Assembly: GCA_001769385.1 (NCBI GenBank)
Contig: MEPB01000037.1
Location: forward strand, 12,241 to 76,240
DNA from: Bacteroidetes bacterium RIFCSPLOWO2_12_FULL_35_15
Lineage (GTDB): Bacteria; Bacteroidota; Bacteroidia; 2-12-FULL-35-15
DNA: 64,000 nucleotides
Direction: 5' to 3'
Below the pieces are notes generated by a model. The model was given only the letters and a program-made list of their open reading frames with translations. It was not told the origin of the DNA and made no database searches. Below, in pieces: positions 49,701-63,405 of the stretch. Position 1 is the stretch's first letter, and each line of letters begins with the position of its first letter. The translations under genes and the position numbers were made by a program.

Positions 49701-51431
49701 ATGAAAAAATGGATTCTTTTATTATTAATTACAACTATCGGTAATAGTGTGTTTTCACAACTTGTTACAGAATATTGGGATGTTGCTCAAACGAAAAAGA
49801 AAAGTGAACAACAAATGAAAAATGGTATGCAAGATGGAAAATTTGTTGCTTGGTTTGAAAACGGTGACATAGCCAGAGAAGGAGCTTTTGTGGAAGGAAA
49901 AGAGAATGGAAAATTTAGTTCGTTTTATCCCGGTAAAAAAGTTAAAGCGGAGGAAAATTATTCAAACGGGAAAAAGAACGGAACATGGAAATATTGGTAT
50001 ATAAATGGAAATAAAGCACAAGAAAATTTTTTTAAAAATGATCAACCGGACAGTACCTGGACCGGATGGTATGAAAGCGGGAAGCTAAAAAGTTCAGAAA
50101 GCTATAAAAACGGGAAAAAAGAGGGCACCTGGACTTATTATTATGAAAACGGACAAAAAGAAAGTGAAGGTAGTTTTAAAAATAATTTTGCAGAAGGTTT
50201 GTATTCCGCTTGGTATTCAAATAATGTAAAGCAACAGGAAGGACAATTTAAAAACGGAAAAAAAACCGGGCTGTGGAGGGATTGGTTTAAAAATGAAAAG
50301 CCAAAGCAAGAATTGCTCTATGAAAACAATGAAGCATTATTAATGAATTTATGGTTAGAAACAGGAGAGCACATTGTAATCAATGGAAATGGAAAATTTA
50401 CTATGGTTTATGATAATGGCACAAAAAAAGGGGAAGGATATTATAAAGATGGTCGCTTAGATGGAGATTGGTTGTTTTACGCTCCTTCCGGTGAAAAGGA
50501 TTATCAGGTTACCTACCAAAAAGGAAAAAAAAACGGGCCATGTATCAATTGGTTTAAAAATGGAAAAGTAAAAAGTGAAGGGCCTTTTCTGGATGACAAA
50601 AAAAATGGAACATGGAAATGGTATAATGAGAATGGAAAACAGGTGATGGAAGGCTTATTAAAGGATGATTTACGAACCGGAAAATGGATGTACTGGTTTG
50701 AAACCGGTATTAAGGAATCAGAAGGTTTTTATAAAAATGATTTACAAGACAGTATTTGGAAATATAATTATAAAGATGGTTCAAAATGGAAAGAAGGAAA
50801 ATTTAAAAATGGTTTGAAGGAAGGGTTTTGGACAATTTGGTTTGAAAGCGGGCAAAAACTTCAGGAAGGAAATTATGTTTCCGGAAAAGAAGAAGGAGTT
50901 TGGTTCTCTTGGTATGACAATGGAATAAAAAAAGATGAAGGAAGTTTTAAATCAGGGAAAATGGATGGAACATGGAAAGGTTGGTTTCCCAATAATAATC
51001 CAAACTATACAGGCTACTATAAAGATGAACTAAAAGATGGAGCATGGAAATATTATTTTGATTCGGGAAAAATAAAAGAAGAAGGCGGCTATAAAAAAGG
51101 CAAAAAAGATGGGCATTGGATATTCTGGACGCCCTTTGGTTTTAAAGATAGCGAAGGAAATTACAAAGAGGAAAAACCTGATGGTCTTTGGACCTATTAT
51201 TTTGAAACCGGTGGAAAATCCATGGAGCAGAGGTTTAGCGATGGAAAATTAAATGGAGATTGCAGCTCTTGGTATGAAAATGGAAAATTAAAAAGTAAGA
51301 CTTCTTATACTTTGGTAAAAGATAAAAATGGCCGGGTTGAAAGTAAGCCTAATGGGGAATGGCTGTATTATGACGAAAATGGTAATGTTATGATGCAGAC
51401 AACCTATAAAAAAGGAATTAAAGTAAAATAA
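49701..51431 (+). CDS. Secreted MORN-repeat-variant (YwqK-like) protein, ~20 tandem repeats
   Basis: Signal peptide, then repeated GKKxGxWxxWYENGxKxxEGxFKNG units throughout the 576 aa. Confidence 0.7.
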   Translation: MKKWILLLLITTIGNSVFSQLVTEYWDVAQTKKKSEQQMKNGMQDGKFVAWFENGDIAREGAFVEGKENGKFSSFYPGKKVKAEENYSNGKKNGTWKYWYINGNKAQENFFKNDQPDSTWTGWYESGKLKSSESYKNGKKEGTWTYYYENGQKESEGSFKNNFAEGLYSAWYSNNVKQQEGQFKNGKKTGLWRDWFKNEKPKQELLYENNEALLMNLWLETGEHIVINGNGKFTMVYDNGTKKGEGYYKDGRLDGDWLFYAPSGEKDYQVTYQKGKKNGPCINWFKNGKVKSEGPFLDDKKNGTWKWYNENGKQVMEGLLKDDLRTGKWMYWFETGIKESEGFYKNDLQDSIWKYNYKDGSKWKEGKFKNGLKEGFWTIWFESGQKLQEGNYVSGKEEGVWFSWYDNGIKKDEGSFKSGKMDGTWKGWFPNNNPNYTGYYKDELKDGAWKYYFDSGKIKEEGGYKKGKKDGHWIFWTPFGFKDSEGNYKEEKPDGLWTYYFETGGKSMEQRFSDGKLNGDCSSWYENGKLKSKTSYTLVKDKNGRVESKPNGEWLYYDENGNVMMQTTYKKGIKVK

Positions 51432-52036: not shown

Positions 52037-52501
52037 ATGATTACTGTTGAAAAAATCAAAAAATTAGCAGACGCTAAAATTGCCGAAGGGACTAATTTTA
52101 TTGTTGATATTAGCGTTAAGCCGGGTAATAAAATTATCGTTCTGTTAGATAATGATCATGGGATTTCTGTTGTTGATTGCGTAGAAATGAGCCGTCACAT
52201 TGAGTTTAGTTTAGACAGAGAATCAGAAGATTTTGAATTGAATGTTATGTCCCCTGGACTTACAGAGCCTTTTAAAATTTTACGGCAGTATCAAAAAAAT
52301 ATTGGCAAATATGTAGATATCACAACCAAAGAAAATAAAAAAATATCGGGAAAATTAATTTCAGTAGATGAAACAGCCATACTTCTTGAAACCAAAACAA
52401 AAGAAAAAGTAGAGGGTAAAAAAGGAAAACAACAAATTATCAATAATATCAATTTAACATTTAATCAAATCAAAGAAACAAAAATTGTAATATCATTTTA
52501 A
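52037..52501 (+). CDS. rimP: Ribosome maturation factor RimP
   Basis: 154 aa. Position immediately upstream of nusA-infB. N-terminal IVDISVKPGNKIIVLLD... is RimP-like. Confidence 0.85.
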   Translation: MITVEKIKKLADAKIAEGTNFIVDISVKPGNKIIVLLDNDHGISVVDCVEMSRHIEFSLDRESEDFELNVMSPGLTEPFKILRQYQKNIGKYVDITTKENKKISGKLISVDETAILLETKTKEKVEGKKGKQQIINNINLTFNQIKETKIVISF

Positions 52502-52512
52502 TACTAAAAAAA

Positions 52513-53763
52513 ATGGAAAGCATTAATTTAATTGAATCGTTCTCAGAATTTAAAGAAATAAAAAACATTGATAGAGCTACATTGATGAGCATTATTGAAG
52601 ATGTATTTCGAAGCATGTTAGTAAAAAAATATGGATCAGATGAAAACTTCGATATTATCGTAAATCCTGACCGTGGTGATATTGAGATATGGCAAAATCG
52701 TACGATCGTTGATGATGAATTTGCAGAGGATAGTTTTGATTACGAGGAAGGAAAACATATCAGTTTAACCGAAGCCAGAAAAATTGAACCTGATTTCGAA
52801 CTGGGCGAGGAAGTAACTACTCCTGTAAAGTTGAATGACTTTGGAAGAAGAGCGGTGTTAGCAGTACGTCAAAATTTGGTTTCAAAAATTCTTGAACTGG
52901 AAAAAGATAGTTTGTATAAAAAATACAAGGAAAGAGTTGGCGAAATAATGACCGGTGAAGTATATCAGATCTGGAAAAAAGAATTATTAATACTTGATGA
53001 AGAAGGTAACGAACTTTTGTTGCCTAAATCAGAGCAAATTGCTTCCGACTTCTTTAAAAAAGGAGATACTATTCGTGCAGTTGTTCAGCGTGTTGAAATG
53101 AAAAATAACTCACCTGTAATTATTTTATCAAGAACATCATCCGCATTTTTGGAACGCTTATTTGAATTAGAAGTTCCTGAGGTATTTGATGGTCTTATCA
53201 CTATTAAAAAAATTGTGCGTGAACCGGGTGAAAGAGCTAAGGTTGCAGTAGAATCATATGATGACAGAATTGATCCTGTTGGTGCTTGTGTTGGAATGAA
53301 AGGATCCCGTATTCATGGAATTGTTCGTGAGTTACGTAATGAAAACATCGATGTTATTAATTACACCAGTAATCCAACATTATTTATTACCAGAGCATTA
53401 AGTCCGGCAAAAATCACTTCTGTTAAAATTGATGAAGAAACAAAACGAGCTGAAGTATTTTTAAAACCGGATCAGGTTTCTTTAGCAATAGGAAAAGGTG
53501 GACATAATATTAAATTAGCAGGTAAATTAACCGGTTATGAGATAGATGTTTATCGTGATACGGATATTGATCTTGAAGATGTGGATCTTGAAGAATTTGC
53601 AGATGAGATCGAAAGCTGGATCTTGGATGAGCTAAAAAATATTGGTTGTGATACTGCAAAAAGCGTATTGGAACTATCAACCGAAGAGCTTGTTAAGCGT
53701 ACCGATTTAGAAGAAGTAACAGTAAATGAAGTAAAAGCAATTTTGCAATCAGAGTTTGAATAA
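52513..53763 (+). CDS. nusA: Transcription termination/antitermination factor NusA
   Basis: S1 and tandem KH regions (GACVGMKGSRIHGIVRELRNENIDVI). 416 aa. Confidence 0.9.
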   Translation: MESINLIESFSEFKEIKNIDRATLMSIIEDVFRSMLVKKYGSDENFDIIVNPDRGDIEIWQNRTIVDDEFAEDSFDYEEGKHISLTEARKIEPDFELGEEVTTPVKLNDFGRRAVLAVRQNLVSKILELEKDSLYKKYKERVGEIMTGEVYQIWKKELLILDEEGNELLLPKSEQIASDFFKKGDTIRAVVQRVEMKNNSPVIILSRTSSAFLERLFELEVPEVFDGLITIKKIVREPGERAKVAVESYDDRIDPVGACVGMKGSRIHGIVRELRNENIDVINYTSNPTLFITRALSPAKITSVKIDEETKRAEVFLKPDQVSLAIGKGGHNIKLAGKLTGYEIDVYRDTDIDLEDVDLEEFADEIESWILDELKNIGCDTAKSVLELSTEELVKRTDLEEVTVNEVKAILQSEFE

Positions 53764-53851
53764 AGTAGTTAATTAGTTGATTGGGCTAATTTAGGGTTAG
53801 CCTGATTTGACCCAATTGACCCAATTAACCAGTCAACCATTACACAATTAT

Positions 53852-56770
53852 ATGTCAGAAAATACAGTACAACGATTAAGTAAAGTAGCCAAGGAACTCA
53901 ATGTTAGTGTTTCTACAATAACAGAATTTCTTAAAGGTAAAGGACATGTCATAGAAAATAATCCTATGGCAAAAATTTCAGAAGAACTGTATTCAATTCT
54001 TTCAAAAGAATATCAATCAGAAAAGGCGGCTAAGGAAGAAGCGAAACAAGTAACATCCAGCTCTCGCGCAAAAAAAGAAAGTATAACCCTGGACGAAGAA
54101 GCAAAAGTTTCTAATGTTAAAAAAGTTGAAGAGGAAGAAGATATAATAATTAAAAACGTGCAGAATATTCCTCCTCCGGAAAAAATAAAGGAGAAGCCTG
54201 TAGAAATTGTTTCTAAAAAAACTGAGCCGGAGGAAGAAAAAGAAGTTATTAAATCGGATGTTAAGTTTACGGTAGTTTCTAAAATTGATCTGGATGCTCT
54301 GAACACAAAAACTAAACCGGCCAAAAAAACGAAATTAACAAAGGAAGAAGAGAAAGCTGCAAAAGAAGAAGAGAAAAAAGCTAAAGCTAAACCAACAAAA
54401 GGAAAAGCAAAAGCAAAAAAAGAAGATGAGGTTGTAGAAGAACAAAAAGAAGTTCAAGAAATTAAAGCACCTGTTGTTGAAGCTGAAGTAATTCCTGAAA
54501 TAAAATCAAGCGATCTTCCTCAAGAAGATTTTCTTGCAACAAAAGTTGAAAAATTAGAAGGACCCAAAATTATGGGTAAAATAGATTTACCTGTAAAAGA
54601 AGAACGAAAAAAACCGGTTGCTTCATCAACCCCGGCAACCCCGGCAAACGATAACAAGAAAAAACGTAAACGCATTAAAAAGAGTTATGGCGGTGCTACG
54701 CTTGGCGATACCTGGAATGCAAATAAAAAACCTGGAACACCTGGTGCCACGGGAACAACAGGTGGTACCGGAACCCCTGTAAATAATGCTCCAAGAAAAC
54801 AATATCCGAATAACACCTTTACACCACAAACACCAAGAGGTAAATATGTTAAACCGGGAAAAGTAGTATTAACTCCTGAAGAAATTCAGGCACAAATAAA
54901 AGAAACGCTTGCTCGTTTAAGCGGAGCAGGAAAATCCAAAGCTTCCAAACACCGTAAATCTAAACGGGATATGGTGAGTGAACGTATTCAGGAAGCTGCA
55001 GATCAGCAAGAGGCAGAGAAAAAAGTAATTAAGGTTACTGAATTTGTTTCTGCAAATCAATTAGCGCAGATGATGGATATTTCGGTAAACGAAATCATTT
55101 CCACATGTATGAGTTTAGGAATGTTTGTTTCCATTAATCAACGTTTAGATGCCGAAACAATAGCTATTGTGGCTGAAGAGTTTGGATACTCGCTGGAGTT
55201 CGTCAGTGTTGAAGTGCAAGAGGCAATAAAAGAAGAAGAAGATACAGAAGATCAATTATTATCCCGTTCACCAATTGTAACAGTAATGGGTCACGTTGAC
55301 CATGGTAAAACATCCTTATTGGATTATATCCGTAAGGCGAATGTTATTGCGGGTGAAGCAGGTGGTATCACACAACATATTGGTGCATATAACGTAAAAT
55401 TAGAAAACGAAAAAACAATTACATTCCTTGATACACCGGGTCACGAAGCCTTTACTGCGATGCGTGCCCGTGGTGCCCAGGTAACTGATATTGCAATTAT
55501 TGTTGTAGCAGCCGATGATAGTGTAATGCCTCAAACCATTGAAGCGATAAATCATGCGCAGGCTGCAGGTGTTCCAATTGTTATTGCAATTAATAAAATT
55601 GACAAACCCGGAGCTAATCCTGATAAGATTCGCGAAGCATTATCGCAATTAAATATTTTGGTGGAAGAATGGGGAGGAAAGGTTCAGTGTCAGGAAATTT
55701 CTGCGAAAAAAGGAAGTAACATTGAAACATTGCTTGAAAAAGTGTTGTTGGAAGCAGAGATGCTTAATTTGAAAGCGAATCCGAATAAAAATGCAACAGG
55801 AACGGTTATTGAATCGGAGCTGGATAAAGGCCGGGGATATGTTAGTACCATACTTGTTGAAGCAGGCACATTGAAAGTTGGAGATATTGTATTAGCAGGT
55901 TGTTTCAGCGGTAAAGTAAAAGCACTGCATAATGAACGCGGACAAGTTGTAAAAGAAGCAGGACCAGCAATGCCGGTAATATTACTGGGTTTGAGTGGTG
56001 CGCCTCAAGCGGGTGATAAATTTCATGTAATGTCAGATGAACGTGAAGCTCGTGAAATTGCTGCGAAACGTTTGCAATTACAACGTGAACAAGGTATCAG
56101 AACAAATAAGCATATTACATTAGATGAAATTGGAAGACGATTAGCGATTGGTGATTTTAAAGAATTGAATGTAATTGTAAAAGGTGACGTGGATGGTTCT
56201 GTGGAAGCATTAGCAGATTCATTGCAAAAACTATCGACTGAAAAAATTCAGATAAAAATTATTCATAAATCTGTTGGTGCCATCAGTGAATCGGATGTAT
56301 TATTAGCTTCGGCATCCAATGCTATCGTTGTTGGTTTCCAGGTTCGCCCTTCAGCAGGTGCCCGTAAAATAGCGGAAACAGAACAAATTGATATTCGTTT
56401 ATATTCTATTATTTATGATGCGATCAATGAAATAAAAGCGGCAATGGAGGGAATGTTAGCCCCTGAATTTGAAGAAAAAATTGTTTGCAACATTGAGATT
56501 CGTGAAGTATTTAATATTACCAGAGTCGGTACAATTGCAGGATGTTTTGTGTTAGACGGAAAAGTGACCCGTAATACCAAAGTACGTGTGATAAGTGATG
56601 GTATTGTTGTTCATACCGGTGAGCTGGGTTCTTTAAAACGTTTTAAAGATGATGTGAAAGAAGTAAACAAAGGTTTTGAATGTGGATTGAACATCAAAAA
56701 TTTCAACGGTATCAAAGTTGGTGATATTATTGAAGGATATGAATTAGTGGAAGTAAAAGCGAAATTATAA
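53852..56770 (+). CDS. infB: Translation initiation factor IF-2
   Basis: Low-complexity K/E-rich N-terminal region, G-domain ([24 protein letters not shown]). Start likely at the internal Met MSENTVQRL, not the ORF-track start at 53807. Confidence 0.9.
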
Positions 56771-56894: not shown

Positions 56895-57641
56895 TTACGA
56901 TCTAAGCCAAGTAAATACCATTTTTAAGTAGCTATTTAAGTAATCATCCAAGTTCTGTGATTTCAAGCCAAAATCAGCTAGCTTTCTGTAAGGACTGCCT
57001 GGGGAAGGAGTCGCAAAGCATTCTATTGAACCGCCATTACTACATTCAATAACCCTCAAAAAAGGTTTTTTTACTAAATCGGGATTGCCATTTATACTTT
57101 GAAGCAATGTGTTTTGAAGTTCAAATGATTTGCTTTCATTCATACTTAATGTTGGATGCTTATTAAAAAAGGCACTATTTAGAAACATTTCATTCATTAC
57201 ACCCTTAGAAGAACACAATATTTTAATCGTTTGTCCCTTTTGGGGGTATTTAAAAAAAAGATGATTGTATGTCCTTTCCGTTAAATGTTTGTCTAAAGCA
57301 GATTTATCCTTCCTGTTGCAGCTGAATATCATATCAGTAATACCAATTGAATTTTTTTCAAGGCTATTTTTTATTGAAGCGACATTTTCAAGAAAGATTT
57401 CTGAGTCGAAAAATGTTTGATACCAATACCAAAACCTATTATTTGAACTTCCATAATAGAATTGGATGTCGCCATTTTTGACTCTTTCAATGGTCTTAAG
57501 CGCATTTAATTTCCCATCATTAGAAAAGGTCAATGACCACGTAGGAAAGCTACCTAGAATTATTTTTGAATGGTTTAAGGTAGGACTATCGAAATCTATT
57601 CTCGGATGAAATTCCCGTAAATTATTTGAAGTATTTTTCAT
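56895..57641 (-). CDS. Hypothetical protein, last gene of the operon; weak resemblance to UDG-superfamily motifs
   Basis: Overlaps the upstream gene by 20 nt. N-terminal ILGSFPTWS resembles UDG motif A (GxxPG-type). C-terminal FATPSPGSPYRKL resembles motif B (HPSPLS / NPSGLS). Not confirmed. Confidence 0.5.
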   Translation of the reverse strand: MKNTSNNLREFHPRIDFDSPTLNHSKIILGSFPTWSLTFSNDGKLNALKTIERVKNGDIQFYYGSSNNRFWYWYQTFFDSEIFLENVASIKNSLEKNSIGITDMIFSCNRKDKSALDKHLTERTYNHLFFKYPQKGQTIKILCSSKGVMNEMFLNSAFFNKHPTLSMNESKSFELQNTLLQSINGNPDLVKKPFLRVIECSNGGSIECFATPSPGSPYRKLADFGLKSQNLDDYLNSYLKMVFTWLRS

Positions 57642-59400
57642 ACAGATCTTCTCCCATTTTTCTGTAGTGACTGGACTTATATCCTTTGAAAGGGAAATTG
57701 CTTACATCGGCAAATTTACTCTTATATAACTCAATGTCTCCATGTTTTTTATTTTCGATCAGAATCCTTAAGCAATTAATAACACCGTTGATAGTAGTGA
57801 CACTCAGAATAGTATTTCCAGCAACTCTATTCACTTTCCAATTTTCATTGTCAATATTGGCTTTCAAACCGATAAAAATGTTTCGAATTTGCTCGACACA
57901 AAAAGCTCGATATTCATCAAGAAGTTTATAGTCATCCTTCTTTTTTTTCAAGTCCTCCTTATTCTTTTTTACCCAAAAACTGAATAAGCTATCTACACCT
58001 TCAAATTTCACTAGTGGTTTTAGGCCAAAGCTTATTATAGTGGTGGTTTTCAATTTAGATTTTTCAAACCAATATTCTTCAAATAGACCACCTAATGGAC
58101 CGGACTCGTTCAATTTGCTAATTATATATTTTGAAATTGATGCCGTTGAAAACGGATTCATCATAAACTCAATTTCATACTTTAATTGTGGAGAAGCCCC
58201 AGACTGATTAGAGTTAATTTCCAAAAATAATTTAGCTTCAAATTTTATCCTTTTTTCTTCAGGTTCGTCTTTGGGATAAAGGATACCTGTAATCAATAAA
58301 TTCTGAATTCCCCTCAAGCCTGCAATAGATTTTTCATAAACATCATCTCCTTCATGATATGAATATGTCCTATGCTGGCCATCAATAATTCCTATAATAT
58401 TCGCTTTACTTGATATTTTAATGGTGGCTGGCTGTACCCTTGTAATACCTGGATTTGTGAAATTTCCTTTATTGTCTATTGACAATTCGCTACCTCCTTC
58501 ATCTAATATTCTAATCTCATTAATTGGTAAAGTTGTTATAATATTATTGATGAATACACGTTTTTCATCGTGCAAATATTTGCGCATACTTTTTATTTTT
58601 TGGGCAACAAACATCCGCTGATAAAATCCAATGTTATCCTTATTTCTCCAACCATCCCTTCTCAAGACGTAGGCTCGTTTAATTAAAGATTCAGCATCAA
58701 TATAAAATGAAACAATCTTATAGCCCTCTTTGAAAGAACTATGTTCTTCAGGCAATATATGCCCAGAGAATTCATCTACAGTACTCTTTGACGCTTGTTT
58801 TATATTGTCACCGATCTTCGAAAAGTCAATTCCAAGAAAATCAAAAAACTCATGTTTTGTGGACTTCTTTATGATTTTGGCGATGCTCACAAAATACTTT
58901 ACAACAGGGTAATCAAAATAATGAATGTTTGTTACCAAAACCTTATGTTCATTAACTACCTTGCGTTTTGAAGCATACAGAATTCGAATTTGCAATTGAT
59001 TTGCAGTGTATTTATTGCTGGTAACGCTTTCAAAGACTTGTTTTAAGGACTTAAACTTGTCCTCAGTCAAAAGGAATTTGAAAAAATTAGCGGGATTTAA
59101 ATTTATTTTATCGTAAATAATTTTCTTTTCCTTCAAATGGATTCCTGGATCACCAATGGTGTATTCAGTAAGTACAAAGATATTTTCATAATAGAAGATG
59201 TCATCGATTTCTGACTCACGGCTGTCATAAGTAAAATGTTTGCCATCAATCCCTGGGACTCTTGAAAATCCGATATTCGTCATCAAGGTTCTTATCTCTC
59301 TGGCTTGTTGATCTTGTTCTCTTTTTTGTTCCTTTTCTTGATCACTGAGTTTTTTCTTCCCCTTCTTTTTACCTTTCGCTTTTGTTTTTTTTGTTTTCAT
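57622..59400 (-). CDS. DGQHR-motif protein (DndB-like, ParB/Srx-fold superfamily) with Lys-rich N-terminal tail
   Basis: Contains ANIIGIIDGQHRTYSYHEG, the diagnostic DGQHR motif of the DndB family. N-terminus MKTKKTKAKGKKKGKKK. 592 aa. Confidence 0.7.
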   Translation of the reverse strand: MKTKKTKAKGKKKGKKKLSDQEKEQKREQDQQAREIRTLMTNIGFSRVPGIDGKHFTYDSRESEIDDIFYYENIFVLTEYTIGDPGIHLKEKKIIYDKINLNPANFFKFLLTEDKFKSLKQVFESVTSNKYTANQLQIRILYASKRKVVNEHKVLVTNIHYFDYPVVKYFVSIAKIIKKSTKHEFFDFLGIDFSKIGDNIKQASKSTVDEFSGHILPEEHSSFKEGYKIVSFYIDAESLIKRAYVLRRDGWRNKDNIGFYQRMFVAQKIKSMRKYLHDEKRVFINNIITTLPINEIRILDEGGSELSIDNKGNFTNPGITRVQPATIKISSKANIIGIIDGQHRTYSYHEGDDVYEKSIAGLRGIQNLLITGILYPKDEPEEKRIKFEAKLFLEINSNQSGASPQLKYEIEFMMNPFSTASISKYIISKLNESGPLGGLFEEYWFEKSKLKTTTIISFGLKPLVKFEGVDSLFSFWVKKNKEDLKKKKDDYKLLDEYRAFCVEQIRNIFIGLKANIDNENWKVNRVAGNTILSVTTINGVINCLRILIENKKHGDIELYKSKFADVSNFPFKGYKSSHYRKMGEDLYEKYFK

Positions 59401-59415
59401 CGAGAAAGAAAAATT

Positions 59416-60318
59416 TTATGGTTTTGCCTTATTTATATCAGTAATTGTACTCATTGCACTAACTACATCCTTGGCATAGATAATGTTTTCTTGTCCAGCC
59501 TTGCCTTCATAAGTAAAATTAAACAAGAGAGAAATAATTCGTTTCCTTCCTCCTACAGACAATTTCTCATCTCCGTAGACGTAGAACTCATGTTTGTTCA
59601 GAGTATAAAGGTTTTGAGAGGCCTTTTTTATTACAACCTTAGTAACACCTATAATAGACTTTTGCTCATATTTAAGCTTGTCAATAGTTCCAACACTTGC
59701 TTCAAATGAAGCTTTAAATTTAAGCGCAGCTGGATCATTCAAATTGCCTTCAATAACATCGTGTAATAGGGTTTTATATTCATTTAAATCTTCACCTTCT
59801 GCAACTGGCCAAGTGAGAAATAATGAAAAATTTCTGCTATATTTTTTTTGAAACTCAAAAACAGATTTGATTGTGGCATCGAAAGGATACTTTACACTGG
59901 CTTGCATTCTCCCATCAAAATCCAAATTTACTACATCGACAGGAAAGGTTTTATTTTTTCCACTAATTATGAAACTATAATTGGCTGCAATGTATGGGAT
60001 GAAGTCCGCTTCCACTTTGGCTTCGATGAGTTTTTCACTTAACTTTCTTTGAATTTTTGGATCTTTTTCGAAACATCTCACATTTCCTTTGATAATTCTA
60101 AAATTAGGGGTTCCATCAACGGATTTTGATTCTGCTTCTTCCCAATCAATCAGGCCTTCATCTTTGAACAGATGCAAATCTTGCATTGCCTCCGCTGGAA
60201 ATGTTAAAATACTGAAGTCACGTTCCTGGTCACCGAATATTTCTTTGGCGAAGGCAACCCACTTTTTTCTAATAAAGTCTTTTGGGCTGGAGTTATGTTT
60301 ATAGACGGCTTTAGGCAT
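59416..60318 (-). CDS. Hypothetical protein (300 aa) in the operon
   Basis: Tightly spaced between the GHKL ATPase and DGQHR genes. VDVVNLDFDG is faintly Rossmann/MTase-motif-I-like but unconvincing. Confidence 0.5.
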   Translation of the reverse strand: MPKAVYKHNSSPKDFIRKKWVAFAKEIFGDQERDFSILTFPAEAMQDLHLFKDEGLIDWEEAESKSVDGTPNFRIIKGNVRCFEKDPKIQRKLSEKLIEAKVEADFIPYIAANYSFIISGKNKTFPVDVVNLDFDGRMQASVKYPFDATIKSVFEFQKKYSRNFSLFLTWPVAEGEDLNEYKTLLHDVIEGNLNDPAALKFKASFEASVGTIDKLKYEQKSIIGVTKVVIKKASQNLYTLNKHEFYVYGDEKLSVGGRKRIISLLFNFTYEGKAGQENIIYAKDVVSAMSTITDINKAKP

Positions 60319-60324
60319 ACAGTA

Positions 60325-61974
60325 TTACTTGGCTTTCCATTCATCTATTTTTTTATAAAATAGCTCCTTTAGTTTTTTTGCATCACCTCGACTTTCATTG
60401 AAAGAATTTTCGAATATGATAAAAATGGTTTGCAAATATTCCCAATCACTTTTTTTAAACTTATTTTTAGCAACAGAATCAATCTCAATTACAGTCCCTT
60501 TATTTTTTGTCGTAACAATTTTAACAGGAGAAACTTCTTCTTCCTCCTTCTTTTTTTTACTTCCTTTTTGGGGAGTTGCAGGTTTAGGCTTTGATGAATA
60601 CGTAACCTTCTTAGCTTTTAAAATTCGCTTTGTGGCATCCTTCTTAACCTTATCCTTTTTGGCATCTCTAACATTTTTCCCGTCATCATATAATTTAAAA
60701 GCAATCTTAAAGATGTCCTCCTTCAAATATTCATGTAAAAAGTTCTGTAAAGCAATATAATCTGGGTGGGTTACCCTGAACGATTTTCGATCAATATTCA
60801 TTGCATCCTCAAGACCCTGTTCGATATATAATTCTCCTGAGATCCAGTTCCTAAATATCTGTTCCATATAAACAGGATATCTTAAAAAAGTGCCGTCAAA
60901 CCCAAATCGCTCTGCAATAGGAATGTTTTTTATTCTAATAGCTACACCATTTAGTTCACGAGGAATTAACAAACTGTTTTGTATGTAAAAATATCCCTTG
61001 AGAGCAATGAAATTATCACTATCGCCAATTCTGATTTTCTTTTTAAATGATGTATGCTCTGCTCTCTTATTTTTATCCTTGGGAAAGTAAATTGGCTTTT
61101 TAAGATACATGCCATCAAAATCCACCTTGAAGTTGAATTTTTTATGAAGAGAAACAATTTCATCAATTGTTTTATCCTTAACTCCTTCAATCGGCCCACC
61201 ATCAATATATTCAACGGGAATGTAAGATGCTAAATCAATAATGAACTGCATATACTCACTATCGTTTTCCCAAGAGTAGACGCTTTTGCTAGCGTGATGT
61301 GCAAGCAGATCTTTCATAGTTTTAAATGAAAGCTTAGCAAAGCCCTTGTTTTTTTCTTTTACCGCTTGAGCTTTATATGTCTCATCATTAAATATCTTTA
61401 AAACAGGCTCTTTTAATCCTACCAGCCTGATTGCTGTAAAGTGTTCGTTCTTATCTTCTTTTTCATTTACTAGGGTAAACTTCCCTTTCAAATAAGTATC
61501 TTCATCATCGCTTTTAGATGGCTTACTATCAAGAATTTCTTTGAAATCAATCCTTGCAGTAAACTTTATCGCTTCACCTTTCTTTGAAGATACAACTTCT
61601 AATACATCACATATCTCATTTACTGCAATAAAACCGATACCTATTTTTCCAATCAATGGTCTGCCAGCTGCAGAAAATTCACCTCTGTTTCGTTTGTTAG
61701 ATTTACTAATCCATGCAAAATTGTTATCAAAATCCTCTGCATTCATTCCATTTCCATCATCTAAGATCGTTATGCTATCTTCGATAGGTTTCATTCTAAT
61801 AATCACATTTTGCGCATCAGCATCAAATGAATTATTTACTAATTCTTTGATACAACTTGCAGGAGAGCTGTAAATACCAGAGCTCAGATCATTTATAATC
61901 TGAGAATGTACTTTAATCTCTCCAACTTGTTCGATGTCCAGAGCAAGAGTTATGTCATTATTTTTATCGGTCAT
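60325..61974 (-). CDS. GHKL-superfamily ATPase (MORC/MutL-like Bergerat fold) with Lys-rich C-terminal tail
   Basis: N-box IKELVNNSFDADAQNV, G1 ILDDGNGMN, G2 GKIGIGFIAV within the first 120 aa. C-terminal KKDKVKKDATKRILKAKK...KGSKKKKEEEE. Confidence 0.7.
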   Translation of the reverse strand: MTDKNNDITLALDIEQVGEIKVHSQIINDLSSGIYSSPASCIKELVNNSFDADAQNVIIRMKPIEDSITILDDGNGMNAEDFDNNFAWISKSNKRNRGEFSAAGRPLIGKIGIGFIAVNEICDVLEVVSSKKGEAIKFTARIDFKEILDSKPSKSDDEDTYLKGKFTLVNEKEDKNEHFTAIRLVGLKEPVLKIFNDETYKAQAVKEKNKGFAKLSFKTMKDLLAHHASKSVYSWENDSEYMQFIIDLASYIPVEYIDGGPIEGVKDKTIDEIVSLHKKFNFKVDFDGMYLKKPIYFPKDKNKRAEHTSFKKKIRIGDSDNFIALKGYFYIQNSLLIPRELNGVAIRIKNIPIAERFGFDGTFLRYPVYMEQIFRNWISGELYIEQGLEDAMNIDRKSFRVTHPDYIALQNFLHEYLKEDIFKIAFKLYDDGKNVRDAKKDKVKKDATKRILKAKKVTYSSKPKPATPQKGSKKKKEEEEVSPVKIVTTKNKGTVIEIDSVAKNKFKKSDWEYLQTIFIIFENSFNESRGDAKKLKELFYKKIDEWKAK

Positions 61975-61976
61975 TC

Positions 61977-62927
61977 TTAATATAAAAAGTGTTCTGGTTT
62001 TCTGGCAACAGCCATGTTAGCGGTAGGCACAAACACAGGTTTTCCCATTTCACGAATTTTTAAATTTCCTATTTTGTACTGACTCATTCTTTCTTCGCCA
62101 ACTCGAATGAATTTTATATACTTTTCTATTCCTAATGAATTTCTTTTGTTCTTGAGAGCCGCGATCATTGTTGACCCAACTCCCGCAAATGGATCCAAAA
62201 TCCAATCATTTTCTTTTGTTAAAGCAAGAACACACCTTTCTACAAGTTCTATTGGGTACTGGCAAGGATGAATTGTTTTTTCTTTATGATTAGCCTTAAC
62301 GTTAGGGATTTCCCAAATGTCCTTCTCCCATTCACTTCGTACAATTTTCCAAACATCAGAAGGATTCTTTCCTTTAGGATTACCCGAAATCTGCCCTTTC
62401 TTTTCACCTTTGTAATATGTTTTTCCAGGATACTTTGCTGGCACTCTAACATCATCAAGATTAAATGTATATTTATCCGATTTCGAATACCACATTATAG
62501 TTTCATATCGCCCAGAAAATCTTTGCGAAGCATGAAGTCCATGCTCAAAATGCCAAATAATTCGATTGCGAAGAATCAGTTTTTCTTTAGCGAAAATATC
62601 GTGATAAAAAATATCCAAAGGCACAACCTCTTTTGTTTTCGGATTTATATAATTACCAACCTGCCAGCAGATGCTGCCTTTTTTATCAAGTAGAGTAACT
62701 AATTTTTTAATAATTGATTCAATTTCCAGTTTATAATTTTCTAAGGAATTAGACTTTTCATATTCCTTATCCATATTATAAGGCGGGGAAGTCATAATAA
62801 GTTTAAACTTCTTTTTCTGCGCAATCAATTTATCCAAATTTTTATCCGCTACTCCATGAATATAATCTGCAGCAACAACCCTGACCCTTCTTTTAGCCTT
62901 TGCTTGTTTTTTTACTGCCTTCGCCAT
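61977..62927 (-). CDS. Beta-class amino DNA methyltransferase (N4-cytosine or N6-adenine)
   Basis: Motif IV IMTSPPYN precedes motif I ILDPFAGVGST (beta-class order), plus HPCQYP motif. Lys/Arg-rich N-terminus MAKAVKKQAKAKRR. Confidence 0.8.
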   Translation of the reverse strand: MAKAVKKQAKAKRRVRVVAADYIHGVADKNLDKLIAQKKKFKLIMTSPPYNMDKEYEKSNSLENYKLEIESIIKKLVTLLDKKGSICWQVGNYINPKTKEVVPLDIFYHDIFAKEKLILRNRIIWHFEHGLHASQRFSGRYETIMWYSKSDKYTFNLDDVRVPAKYPGKTYYKGEKKGQISGNPKGKNPSDVWKIVRSEWEKDIWEIPNVKANHKEKTIHPCQYPIELVERCVLALTKENDWILDPFAGVGSTMIAALKNKRNSLGIEKYIKFIRVGEERMSQYKIGNLKIREMGKPVFVPTANMAVARKPEHFLY

Positions 62928-63064: not shown

Positions 63065-63325
63065 CTAGTTCACGTGTAAGGTATCTAGGAAACTCCCTTT
63101 TAACTTTAACCCGAATTCCTTTATGAGATCACCCAAGTTCATTTCAAATTCTTCAGCCAGTTTATAACACCAAAACAATGTTGGACTAATCTCCCCACGC
63201 TCAAGACGAGATATGTTTTGGTAATTATTCCCGACTTTAGAAGCCAGATGTGCCTGTGGCCAATCCTTTTCAAGTCTCTTTTTTGCACAGTTAAGGCAGG
63301 AAAGGAATGCAAGGCCTTTTTGTTT
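63065..63325 (-). CDS. XRE-family HTH reading frame (controller-like), with no in-frame ATG/GTG/TTG start; possibly frameshifted or degraded
   Basis: Minus-strand frame reads CAKKRLEKDWPQAHLASKVGNNYQNISRLERGEISPTLFWCYKLAEEFEMNLGDLIKEFG, a textbook XRE helix-turn-helix layout. The ORF-track ATG at 63369 is in a different frame. Confidence 0.4.
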   Translation of the reverse strand, partial: KQKGLAFLSCLNCAKKRLEKDWPQAHLASKVGNNYQNISRLERGEISPTLFWCYKLAEEFEMNLGDLIKEFGLKLKGSFLDTLHVN

Positions 63326-63405
63326 TTACATATATTTAAACAAATGATTAAATATATTGTTTTAATCAAAATATAAATTTAATTTTGTTATGCTATTTTG
63401 TAATC

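Follow-up and report, generated by a model that had tools for sequence, protein, structure and literature searches.

Among the described systems closest to the locus studied here, several are built on ATPases of the GHKL superfamily. MORC and paraMORC GHKL ATPases were predicted in restriction-modification (RM) neighbourhoods by Iyer, Abhiman & Aravind in 2008 (PMC2292703), and for the paraMORC3-type GHKL-Shedu nuclease VcSduA phage protection depends on both ATPase and nuclease residues (PMC12137116). A GHKL ATPase in an RM-like system is thus already known, as a prediction since 2008 and, for the VcSduA branch, with experimental support. A general question about MORC-type GHKL ATPases, in bacteria as in eukaryotes, is how they read an epigenetic mark. 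Here we describe a GHKL ATPase gene at 60325-61974 on the minus strand of a 64,000-nucleotide (nt) stretch of contig MEPB01000037.1 from Bacteroidetes bacterium RIFCSPLOWO2_12_FULL_35_15, hereafter the window. The family to which it belongs forms a compact two- or three-gene module, in which the ATPase and a partner shaped like a methyltransferase stay together and the enzyme that marks the DNA can be exchanged. This combination of a GHKL protein with a methyltransferase-fold partner appears to be undescribed; our literature search found no paper describing the pair, or linking DndC to GHKL-type ATPases. We favour the reading, held with about equal belief and doubt, that the pair is a portable core, made up of ATPase and DNA reader, of a paraMORC-type system that tells self from non-self by DNA modification, working with interchangeable modifiers.

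The window protein resembles paraMORCs in its N-terminal GHKL domain with intact motifs, its transducer-type domain, its methylase neighbours, its sporadic spread and its lack of the MORC motif. Taken broadly, as GHKL-transducer proteins without the MORC motif in RM-type mobile neighbourhoods, paraMORCs include it. At the level of the individual branches, however, none of the paraMORC1-5 hallmarks was seen in a comparison by published descriptions: there is no restriction-fold nuclease (paraMORC3), TIR domain (paraMORC4), HxH C-terminal domain (paraMORC5) or ExxxH (paraMORC2). Moreover, the constant neighbour is a methyltransferase-fold protein rather than a superfamily 2 (SF2) helicase or an endonuclease, and coupling to DndC or to B12-radical-SAM genes is not described for paraMORCs. 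VcSduA is similar in having a GHKL N domain in an anti-phage protein, with an ATPase able to control an immune effector, but it is a single gene with its own PD-(D/E)xK (DUF4263) nuclease, whereas the window protein has no nuclease and its partner is encoded separately. Phage-encoded proteins match the GHKL N domain weakly (~33-34% identity over ~115-170 residues), one of them being annotated ParaMORC3, and plasmid and phage collections yielded only N-domain matches and no full-length relatives. The best sequence-family match of the ATP-binding domain is the NCBIfam model of the BbrUII/HgiDII N terminus (NF050001, 1e-25), and both systems have a methyltransferase gene alongside, in surroundings of the RM type. 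The rest of the window protein is unrelated to BbrUII/HgiDII, the full-length score being 90.4 bits against a cut-off of 550, over profile positions 3-171 of 659. The original prediction for this DNA had regarded prokaryotic MORC-like GHKL ATPases as experimentally uncharacterised, which holds for this GHKL family but is outdated for prokaryotic GHKL defence generally, given VcSduA (PMC12137116).

The gene is a single open reading frame (ORF) of 549 amino acids (aa) and is 100% identical to a database entry, A3F72_10990, from the same metagenome-assembled organism. It is divided as follows.

60325..61974, minus strand: GHKL ATPase gene, 549 aa; locus tag A3F72_10990, NCBI label 'hypothetical protein'; HATPase_c_3 at 5.5e-19
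61411..61932, minus strand: Bergerat-fold ATP-binding domain containing motifs I-IV (residues ~15-188); motif residues unchanged in 95 sequences, hhalign to HtpG and MutL
60766..61410, minus strand: middle (transducer/S5-like) domain, residues ~189-403; Foldseek spans to TRAP1/Hsp90/HtpG and to the MORC3 cassette
60526..60765, minus strand: long helix 404-452, short strand 456-461 and Lys-rich linker 462-483; AlphaFold secondary structure, predicted local distance difference test (pLDDT) and composition
60328..60525, minus strand: conserved C-terminal alpha/beta domain, residues 484-549; AlphaFold elements, with F521, E522 and F539 conserved

A hidden Markov model (HMM) search, which had been proposed as a check, returned Pfam HATPase_c_3 above its cut-off over residues 36-146. 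The N-box, G1 and G2 Bergerat motifs had been called clear, and indeed their residues do not vary across 95 aligned full-length homologues: the N box (motif I) reads E44-x3-N48-x2-D51, within 'KELVNNSFDA'; motif II (G1) is D72-x-G74-x-G76, within 'DDGNGM'; and motif III (G2) is G109-x2-G112-x-G114, within 'GKIGIGF'. To these we add an equally invariant motif IV, T180, which was absent from the earlier list. With motifs I-IV present in order, the protein is a member of the GHKL superfamily. Because its full-length homologues (34-73% identity) come from many bacterial and archaeal phyla, the ORF at 60325-61974 is not a chance reading frame.

Beyond the ATP-binding domain, the middle domain carries three family signatures, namely G327-Y-[FI]-Y-x-Q...P338, G343-x2-IRIKN, and G-E381-[IL]-Y-x-E-x-G387-L-E389-x-A-M-N393-I-D-R396-x-S-F399. 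By eye, the 'AMNIDRxSF' of the third may resemble the Hsp90 catalytic-loop 'PLNxSRExL', a tentative lead. In the AlphaFold model (pLDDT 86.9, predicted template modelling score (pTM) 0.81) the middle domain is followed by a Lys-rich segment, residues ~425-485, with 19 K, 4 E and 5 D among its 61 residues. This segment had been taken for a ~60-aa Lys/Glu-rich tail, but it is internal: its first part is the end of the 49-residue helix 404-452, and a conserved domain of ~65 aa (484-549) comes after it. Confidence is lowest at residues 462-483, for which the model predicts no secondary structure, and the whole helix and linker region differs between homologues in length and sequence. The C-terminal domain is modelled as strands 484-490 and 493-498 followed by helices 508-528 and 532-546, and possibly has a role in dimerisation. 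The full-length architecture is conserved across the family.

The 549-aa protein is a GHKL ATPase with a predicted transducer-type middle domain, of the class of MutL, MORC, Hsp90 and GyrB, and it is Hsp90/MORC-like in fold while standing outside every named family. When the full model was compared with the Protein Data Bank (PDB) by Foldseek, the top 14 matches were TRAP1, Hsp90, HtpG and GRP94 (8.8e-14 to 6e-12). The best, TRAP1 at 8.8e-14, aligns over the N and middle domains, and the overall fold of these two domains is that of Hsp90/HtpG. The MORC3 ATPase cassette (5ix2) ranked 15th, at 6.5e-12 and with a template-modelling (TM) score of 0.49 on the target. By sequence, the family profile found the Hsp90 N domain in the PDB at 5.7e-9, level with MutL at 1.5e-8; hhalign to E. 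coli HtpG gave 112 columns (1.8e-9) running through motif III, and to E. coli MutL 62 columns (8e-8) ending after motif II. Further matches of the protein were to phrog_6203 (8e-30), to PADLOC REase_II (6.5e-16, N domain) and to the sacsin N-terminal domain (2e-9), the NCBIfam sacsin model being described as an N-terminal ATP-binding-like domain. In all 37 family members searched, Pfam domains outside the GHKL superfamily, including S5/transducer and middle-domain models, gave no match; no accessory domain of GyrB, MutL, Hsp90 or histidine kinases was detected in the GHKL protein, and profile and Foldseek searches revealed no nuclease motif or fold in it or in its partner.

The description MORC/MutL-like is therefore right as to a GHKL domain joined to a probable transducer-type domain and wrong as to either family. 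MORC identity was rejected because a regular-expression scan found the MORC S5 motif GhXhhpXXRhl in only 1 of the 95 relatives; in a related block, G327-Y-[FI]-Y-x-Q, the MORC-diagnostic Arg is replaced by L, I or Q. MutL identity was rejected as well, with TIGR00585 (9e-12) matching residues 34-85 only, far below its cut-off (44.6 bits against 180), and with no DNA_mis_repair or MutL_C domain. A sensor histidine kinase was rejected since there is no HisKA-type match, HATPase_c reaches 22.4 bits against a cut-off of 26.4, and the ATP domain is N-terminal. The likeness to the Hsp90 family extends from the fold of the N and middle domains to a G1-G2 lid region that aligns with HtpG and to an N-M-C layout with a charged flexible segment. 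Nevertheless, membership of that family was rejected: the Pfam HSP90 model PF00183 matches none of the 37 members, the HSP90-family model PRK14083 (2e-10) scores 39.8 bits against a cut-off of 455, so that the protein fails every Hsp90 family model, and its middle domain is not alignable by sequence. The protein also lacks the insertion after the N box, and its context is DNA modification rather than proteostasis. It had been allowed that Hsp90-type top homologs with a conserved full-length architecture would speak against the first assignment; we find them in fold, but not in family membership.

These comparisons bear on the idea that the protein is a housekeeping Hsp90-like chaperone paralogue which lies in this operon by accident. 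Its top structural matches are TRAP1, Hsp90 and HtpG, one homologue is annotated 'Chaperone protein HtpG', and 26 of 37 members have the weak sacsin-domain match. We consider this idea extremely improbable, however, given the failure of the Hsp90 models just described, the strict link to DNA-modification genes, the patchy taxonomic distribution, and an intact GHKL gene beside a decayed partner in Smithellaceae that looks like the remnant of a mobile module.

The strict link emerges from the genes around the GHKL ATPase, of which the nearest encodes its partner.

59416..60318, minus strand: partner gene, 300 aa, A3F72_10985, predicted class I S-adenosylmethionine (SAM)-methyltransferase fold; AlphaFold and Foldseek, with a weak PP_RS20740 match

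We collected 80 loci, at one genome per species, as well as metagenome loci, in which ORFs were called and searched with iterated profiles. Counts refer to the 57 non-redundant loci in which the GHKL gene is intact and is followed by 1 kb of sequence or more. A partner homologue is located directly downstream of the GHKL gene and on the same strand in 55 of the 57 loci; the two genes are separated by a median of -1 nt, and in 49 of 53 pairs they either overlap or are no more than 10 nt apart. GHKL and partner are an obligate two-gene pair, and the partner is probably co-translated with the GHKL gene. A DNA-modification gene was found within -3/+4 kb of the pair in 53 of the 57 loci, and its kind is swapped from one locus to another.

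43 loci: N6_N4 methyltransferase of several subfamilies, on either side of the pair; motif SPPY in 24, DPPF in 10 and DPPY in 3
7 loci: B12-binding radical-SAM protein
4 loci: DndC directly before the GHKL gene; TIGR03183 at 2e-112, above cut-off
2 loci: HsdM

The N6_N4 methyltransferase often adjoins the pair at 0-7 nt. Where the radical-SAM gene takes its place, it encodes a protein of ~370-400 aa with weak resemblance to the TIGR04013 family and follows either the partner (L020, L021, L023, L025, L002) or the GHKL gene (L067, L074). This B12-radical-SAM enzyme could write a DNA modification not yet described, which is one reason why the variant deserves attention. In three loci a DndC-GHKL-partner set occurs without DndD or DndE in the fetched flanks (L061 1026-4975, L065 8749-12663, L077 302-4228), while in L073 a full DndC-DndD-DndE set stands alongside the pair. 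In L065 the upstream neighbour of the set is the housekeeping gyrB. Restriction-type genes are found near the pair in some loci as well. For example, archaeal loci contain dnd_restrict_1 (PLD and SF2 helicase), a DndD-like ATPase and dnd_assoc_4, and L058 contains DptH. Elsewhere the pair has HTH_3 genes in its vicinity. Helicases are near it in 3 loci only, and most pair loci contain no effector gene. In Chitinophaga (L001 3444-7592) and Winogradskyella (L015 5336-9900) the pair and a methyltransferase are accompanied by a short DndB of ~350 aa and a HEPN protein, a gene set that matches the 'ParB nuclease + methylase + HEPN (MAE_28990)' operon type (Anantharaman et al. 2013).

Members of the GHKL family are scattered over more than 20 phyla, both bacterial and archaeal, and often adjoin integrases or TnpB; this patchy spread is consistent with horizontal transfer of the pair. 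In Smithellaceae (L002-L004, L024; genes at 9611-10595 of L002) the GHKL gene, carried by many peatland metagenome contigs, is intact and stands next to a partner broken into fragments of 57 and 131 aa and a radical-SAM gene that is likewise intact, the whole being located beside dnaK-grpE.

The partner was modelled with a pLDDT of 82 and a pTM of 0.84. Almost all of the PDB matches listed for it by Foldseek are class I methyltransferases or methyltransferase-fold proteins (TM 0.38-0.43), including KijD1 (best, 3.9e-6), BCDIN3D, TrmM, M.TaqI and the transcription factor Mtf1, itself of methyltransferase fold. The model is consistent with a Rossmann-like seven-strand fold. At the end of strand 2, all 56 of 56 sequences have E84, which stands at what we take to be the usual SAM-ribose contact position for an acidic residue. 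N131-x-D133, at the end of strand 4 and thus at the motif IV position, is likewise invariant in the 56 sequences. The only family recognised by sequence is PP_RS20740 (NCBIfam NF047698; Pfam PF28273), a weak match at 4.3e-7; partner homologues had no match in the Pfam release searched, which did not contain PF28273, and PADLOC 2.0 offered no model or system-specific match. The literature on PP_RS20740 was of no help, since in the sole paper found it figures as a hypothetical protein with an effect on furfural tolerance. The partner belongs to a small family, for which a search of 1.84 billion proteins yielded 103 representatives at E <= 1e-3. Apart from one marginal match these are free-standing proteins, or fragments, no longer than ~385 aa, and fusions to other domains are absent.

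An ATPase coupled to a DNA-recognition partner has a parallel in DndD and DndE, a scanning pair proposed to recruit phosphorothioation enzymes or cytosine methylases (Rakesh, Aravind & Krishnan 2024, PMC10853773). Both pairs occur with DndC or methylases, with DndB-type ParB proteins and with variable nucleases, and in loci that lack DndD and DndE it is GHKL and partner that come immediately behind DndC. They differ in that one uses a GHKL and the other an ABC ATPase, and in that a methyltransferase fold takes the place of a double ribbon-helix-helix. We infer that the parallel is functional and does not reflect homology. Canonical phosphorothioation requires both DndD and DndE. If GHKL and partner load the modifier, they would explain DndC genes without DndD/E, and they would represent a second, fold-independent solution of the 'scanning ATPase + reader' kind, beside DndD-DndE (proposed) and MANTIS (demonstrated). 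In the MANTIS (Gao_RL) system, MtsA, MtsB and MtsC are such that an ATPase and a co-factor are needed to load or activate the defence methyltransferase (bioRxiv 10.64898/2026.09.23.753747), which sets a demonstrated precedent for ATP-dependent self-marking. Unlike the window locus, however, MANTIS has an AAA+ ATPase (MtsA), a dedicated PLD helicase-nuclease and no GHKL protein, and there is no relation in sequence or fold. As candidates for the identity of the window system, MANTIS/Gao_RL (the MtsABCD set) was rejected because the gene content here differs from its published description, and MADS because it is an eight-gene mad operon of ~22 kb with a type I-like methylase and a kinase.

In the window the pair belongs to a five-gene operon on the minus strand, in the order methyltransferase, GHKL, partner, DGQHR and a protein like uracil-DNA glycosylase (UDG), with intergenic gaps of -20 to 15 nt. 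The remaining members are the following.

61977..62927, minus strand: beta-class N4/N6 DNA methyltransferase, 316 aa, SPPY at residue 47; Pfam N6_N4_Mtase 7.1e-51, PADLOC MTase_II 1.1e-63
57622..59400, minus strand: DGQHR-domain (DndB/DpdB-like, ParB superfamily) protein, 592 aa, A3F72_10980; TIGR03187, PADLOC DpdB
56895..57641, minus strand: 248-aa UDG-superfamily candidate (family-6 hypoxanthine-DNA-glycosylase-like); TIGR04274, overlapping the DGQHR gene by 20 nt

The location of the GHKL gene in a DNA-modification operon agrees with the original prediction and with what Iyer et al. foresaw for MORC/paraMORC proteins (PMC2292703), and the 2-nt gap that had been noted after the methyltransferase is exact: its TAA is followed by GA and then by the ATG of the GHKL ORF. 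We take the SPPY motif to be typical of N4-cytosine enzymes. The DGQHR protein falls just short of the TIGR03187 cut-off (1.1e-15, 58.1 bits against 58.85) and far short of that of PADLOC DpdB (2e-7, 26.8 against 300). The 248-aa protein matches TIGR04274 at 1e-5, its 25.7 bits lying below the cut-off of 80, as do 5 of 6 orthologues, and has the conserved blocks GSFPTW, GITD..SC.RK and PSPGSPYR; on these grounds it is tentatively a UDG-like glycosylase. Sequence and profile searches of the PDB with the UDG-like and DGQHR proteins returned nothing significant, the best for the UDG-like protein being 2l3f at E 0.65. The operon is not a Dnd or Dpd system, there being no DndA/C/D/E or DpdA match among its five proteins. 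The same five genes, in shuffled order, are present in two Mucilaginibacter genomes and one flavobacterial metagenome-assembled genome.

The DGQHR gene raises the question of whose methyltransferase this is. Its ~590-aa family, with at least 944 database matches including a Bacteroides xylanisolvens cluster of 585, is far larger than the GHKL family; a metagenome scan with the one DGQHR protein yielded a single fragment. Three contexts were examined, from Bacteroides (L091/L092 5734-8785), Pseudomonas (L093 5755-8782) and Dyadobacter (L094 5703-8809), and in these the DGQHR gene comes directly after an N6_N4 methyltransferase of ~420 aa, with no GHKL gene, and a methylase and DGQHR two-gene module seems common in gut and soil bacteria. 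Together with the fact that an operon type of ParB nuclease, DNA methylase and HEPN has already been described (PMC3710099), these data could mean that the adjacency is due to chance: the methyltransferase would belong to the DGQHR protein, and the GHKL-partner pair would stand alone and need no modifier. We regard this as very unlikely. Where an N6_N4 methyltransferase accompanies the pair (43 loci), a DGQHR gene is mostly missing, and the short methyltransferase-pair distances given above argue against it too. Moreover, the window methyltransferase is of the 313-aa subtype that is paired with GHKL elsewhere (E 1e-160; L007, L008) and not of the ~420-aa subtype associated with DGQHR. Since the DGQHR family is the larger and forms a methylase module of its own elsewhere, the window operon is best seen as a core of GHKL protein, partner and methyltransferase with a DGQHR-type module attached, both using the one methyltransferase.

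Returning to the portable ATPase and DNA-reader core, we propose that it would work as follows. Binding of ATP would close a GHKL dimer around DNA; such ATP-dependent dimerisation and clamping can be expected because other GHKL-transducer proteins do so. The methyltransferase-fold partner, bound to the ATPase in one complex, would act as a reader and inspect the target DNA, and the complex would license the modification enzyme to mark the host's own DNA. On unmodified DNA it would instead hand over to variable effectors, which may be the ParB-like DGQHR and UDG-like proteins in the window and PLD-helicase, DptH or HEPN proteins elsewhere, so that the whole would serve defence. Two roles are thereby ascribed to the pair. 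A role in modification is favoured because DndC occurs with the pair in the absence of DndD/E and because the core has no nuclease. A role in restriction is favoured because the N domain is nearest to restriction enzymes and Shedu-type paraMORC3 proteins, and because inactive methyltransferase folds read DNA in DndH. Restricting DNA and loading a modifier are not separable computationally.

Several observations weigh against this proposal. There is no recognisable nuclease in the three-gene core, which leaves a restriction output unexplained wherever an extra effector is absent. Four of the 57 loci have no modification gene nearby. A beta-class methyltransferase of ~310 aa normally works by itself, without the help of a loader. 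The 56 members of the partner family have neither a glycine-rich motif I nor a [DNS]PP[YFW] motif IV, the respective positions being occupied by T-[FL]-[PSC]-[AG] and by N131-[LF]-D133 with no conserved aromatic. The middle domain shows no significant sequence match to those of HtpG or MutL (hhalign probability <1%), and the profile of this region scored no better against HtpG than 500 shuffles. Finally, in the Mucilaginibacter-type loci the sole methyltransferase is of a type, ~427 aa long, which in other places goes with the DGQHR module, and so the linkage of methyltransferase and pair could be indirect there.

Part of this evidence would suit a different division of labour, in which GHKL and partner are an ATP-dependent restriction or exclusion complex and the neighbouring modifier only protects the host. 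The complex would act through an unrecognised catalytic site or by non-cutting clamping or compaction of unmodified DNA, in a BREX-like or MORC-like manner. Such a pure restriction half is possible, if on the unlikely side. It accords with the sequence neighbourhood of the N domain, whose closest relatives are restriction enzymes and paraMORC3/Shedu-type proteins, with the prediction of paraMORCs as restriction components (PMC2292703), with the ability of a GHKL domain to gate an immune nuclease in VcSduA (PMC12137116), with the DNA-reading role of an inactive Dam-like domain in DndH (PMC10853773), and with a pair that is constant while the modification gene varies. That very variety also counts against it, as a single conserved reader would have to sense N4-methylcytosine or N6-methyladenine (m4C/m6A), phosphorothioate and a radical-SAM product. 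Neither protein has a nuclease motif or fold, and the DndC genes found beside the pair without DndD/E suggest that the pair is needed for modification. A related but less probable view, which we hold to be doubtful, does without a nuclease altogether. It sees the pair as an immune or epigenetic core, composed of a MORC/Hsp90-like clamp and a degenerate methyltransferase-fold reader, which topologically entraps and silences unmodified foreign DNA or else serves as an ATP-driven loader for three modifiers of different chemistry, namely an N4/N6 methyltransferase, DndC (with the pair replacing DndD-DndE) and the B12-radical-SAM enzyme, the last writing a new DNA modification. Restriction by the pair in the absence of any nuclease would make it the bacterial equivalent of MORC-type silencing.

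At the other extreme, the trio may be an epigenetic marking system that serves modification only. The partner would then be an active second methyltransferase or a specificity subunit, the GHKL protein its loader, and the DGQHR and UDG-like proteins an unrelated module. The partner's methyltransferase fold and its invariant acidic residue at the SAM-ribose position are in keeping with this, as are the lack of an effector gene in most loci and the finding that many Dnd modification modules occur without restriction genes (PMC10853773). We nonetheless think it rather improbable, because the sporadic spread fits horizontal transfer and the pair recurs beside DptH, dnd_restrict_1, HEPN and DGQHR, because the five window genes are so tightly packed, and because the five-gene set recurs, shuffled, in three other Bacteroidota genomes.

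The surroundings of the operon contain two further features.

63065..63331, minus strand: XRE-type helix-turn-helix (HTH) reading frame in the position of a controller protein, upstream of the methyltransferase; from the translation, beginning ATG TAA
56844..56873, no strand assigned: terminator-like bidirectional hairpin at the ends of infB and the operon; 13-bp stem found on both strands

The XRE-type frame contains '...KKRLEKDWPQAHLASKVGNNYQNISRLERGEISPTLFWCYKLAEEFEMNLGDL...' and has no usable start before an internal TTG, which may point to a pseudogene, to an error in sequencing or to a non-canonical start. The operon is flanked by the infB terminator on one side and by a divergent TetR-like gene on the other, and the rimP-nusA-infB operon (52037-56770, plus strand) ends at the same bidirectional terminator. 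The G+C content of the modification island, ~33%, is the same as that of its surroundings, and a search of the locus for signs of island insertion found no flanking direct repeats, tRNA genes or Rfam RNAs. Farther away, at 49701-51431 on the plus strand, lies a gene for a secreted-looking protein of 576 aa that consists almost entirely of ~23-residue repeats, 'YxNGxKxxEGxFKNGKKxGxW', which presumably resemble MORN-variant or YwqK-like repeats.

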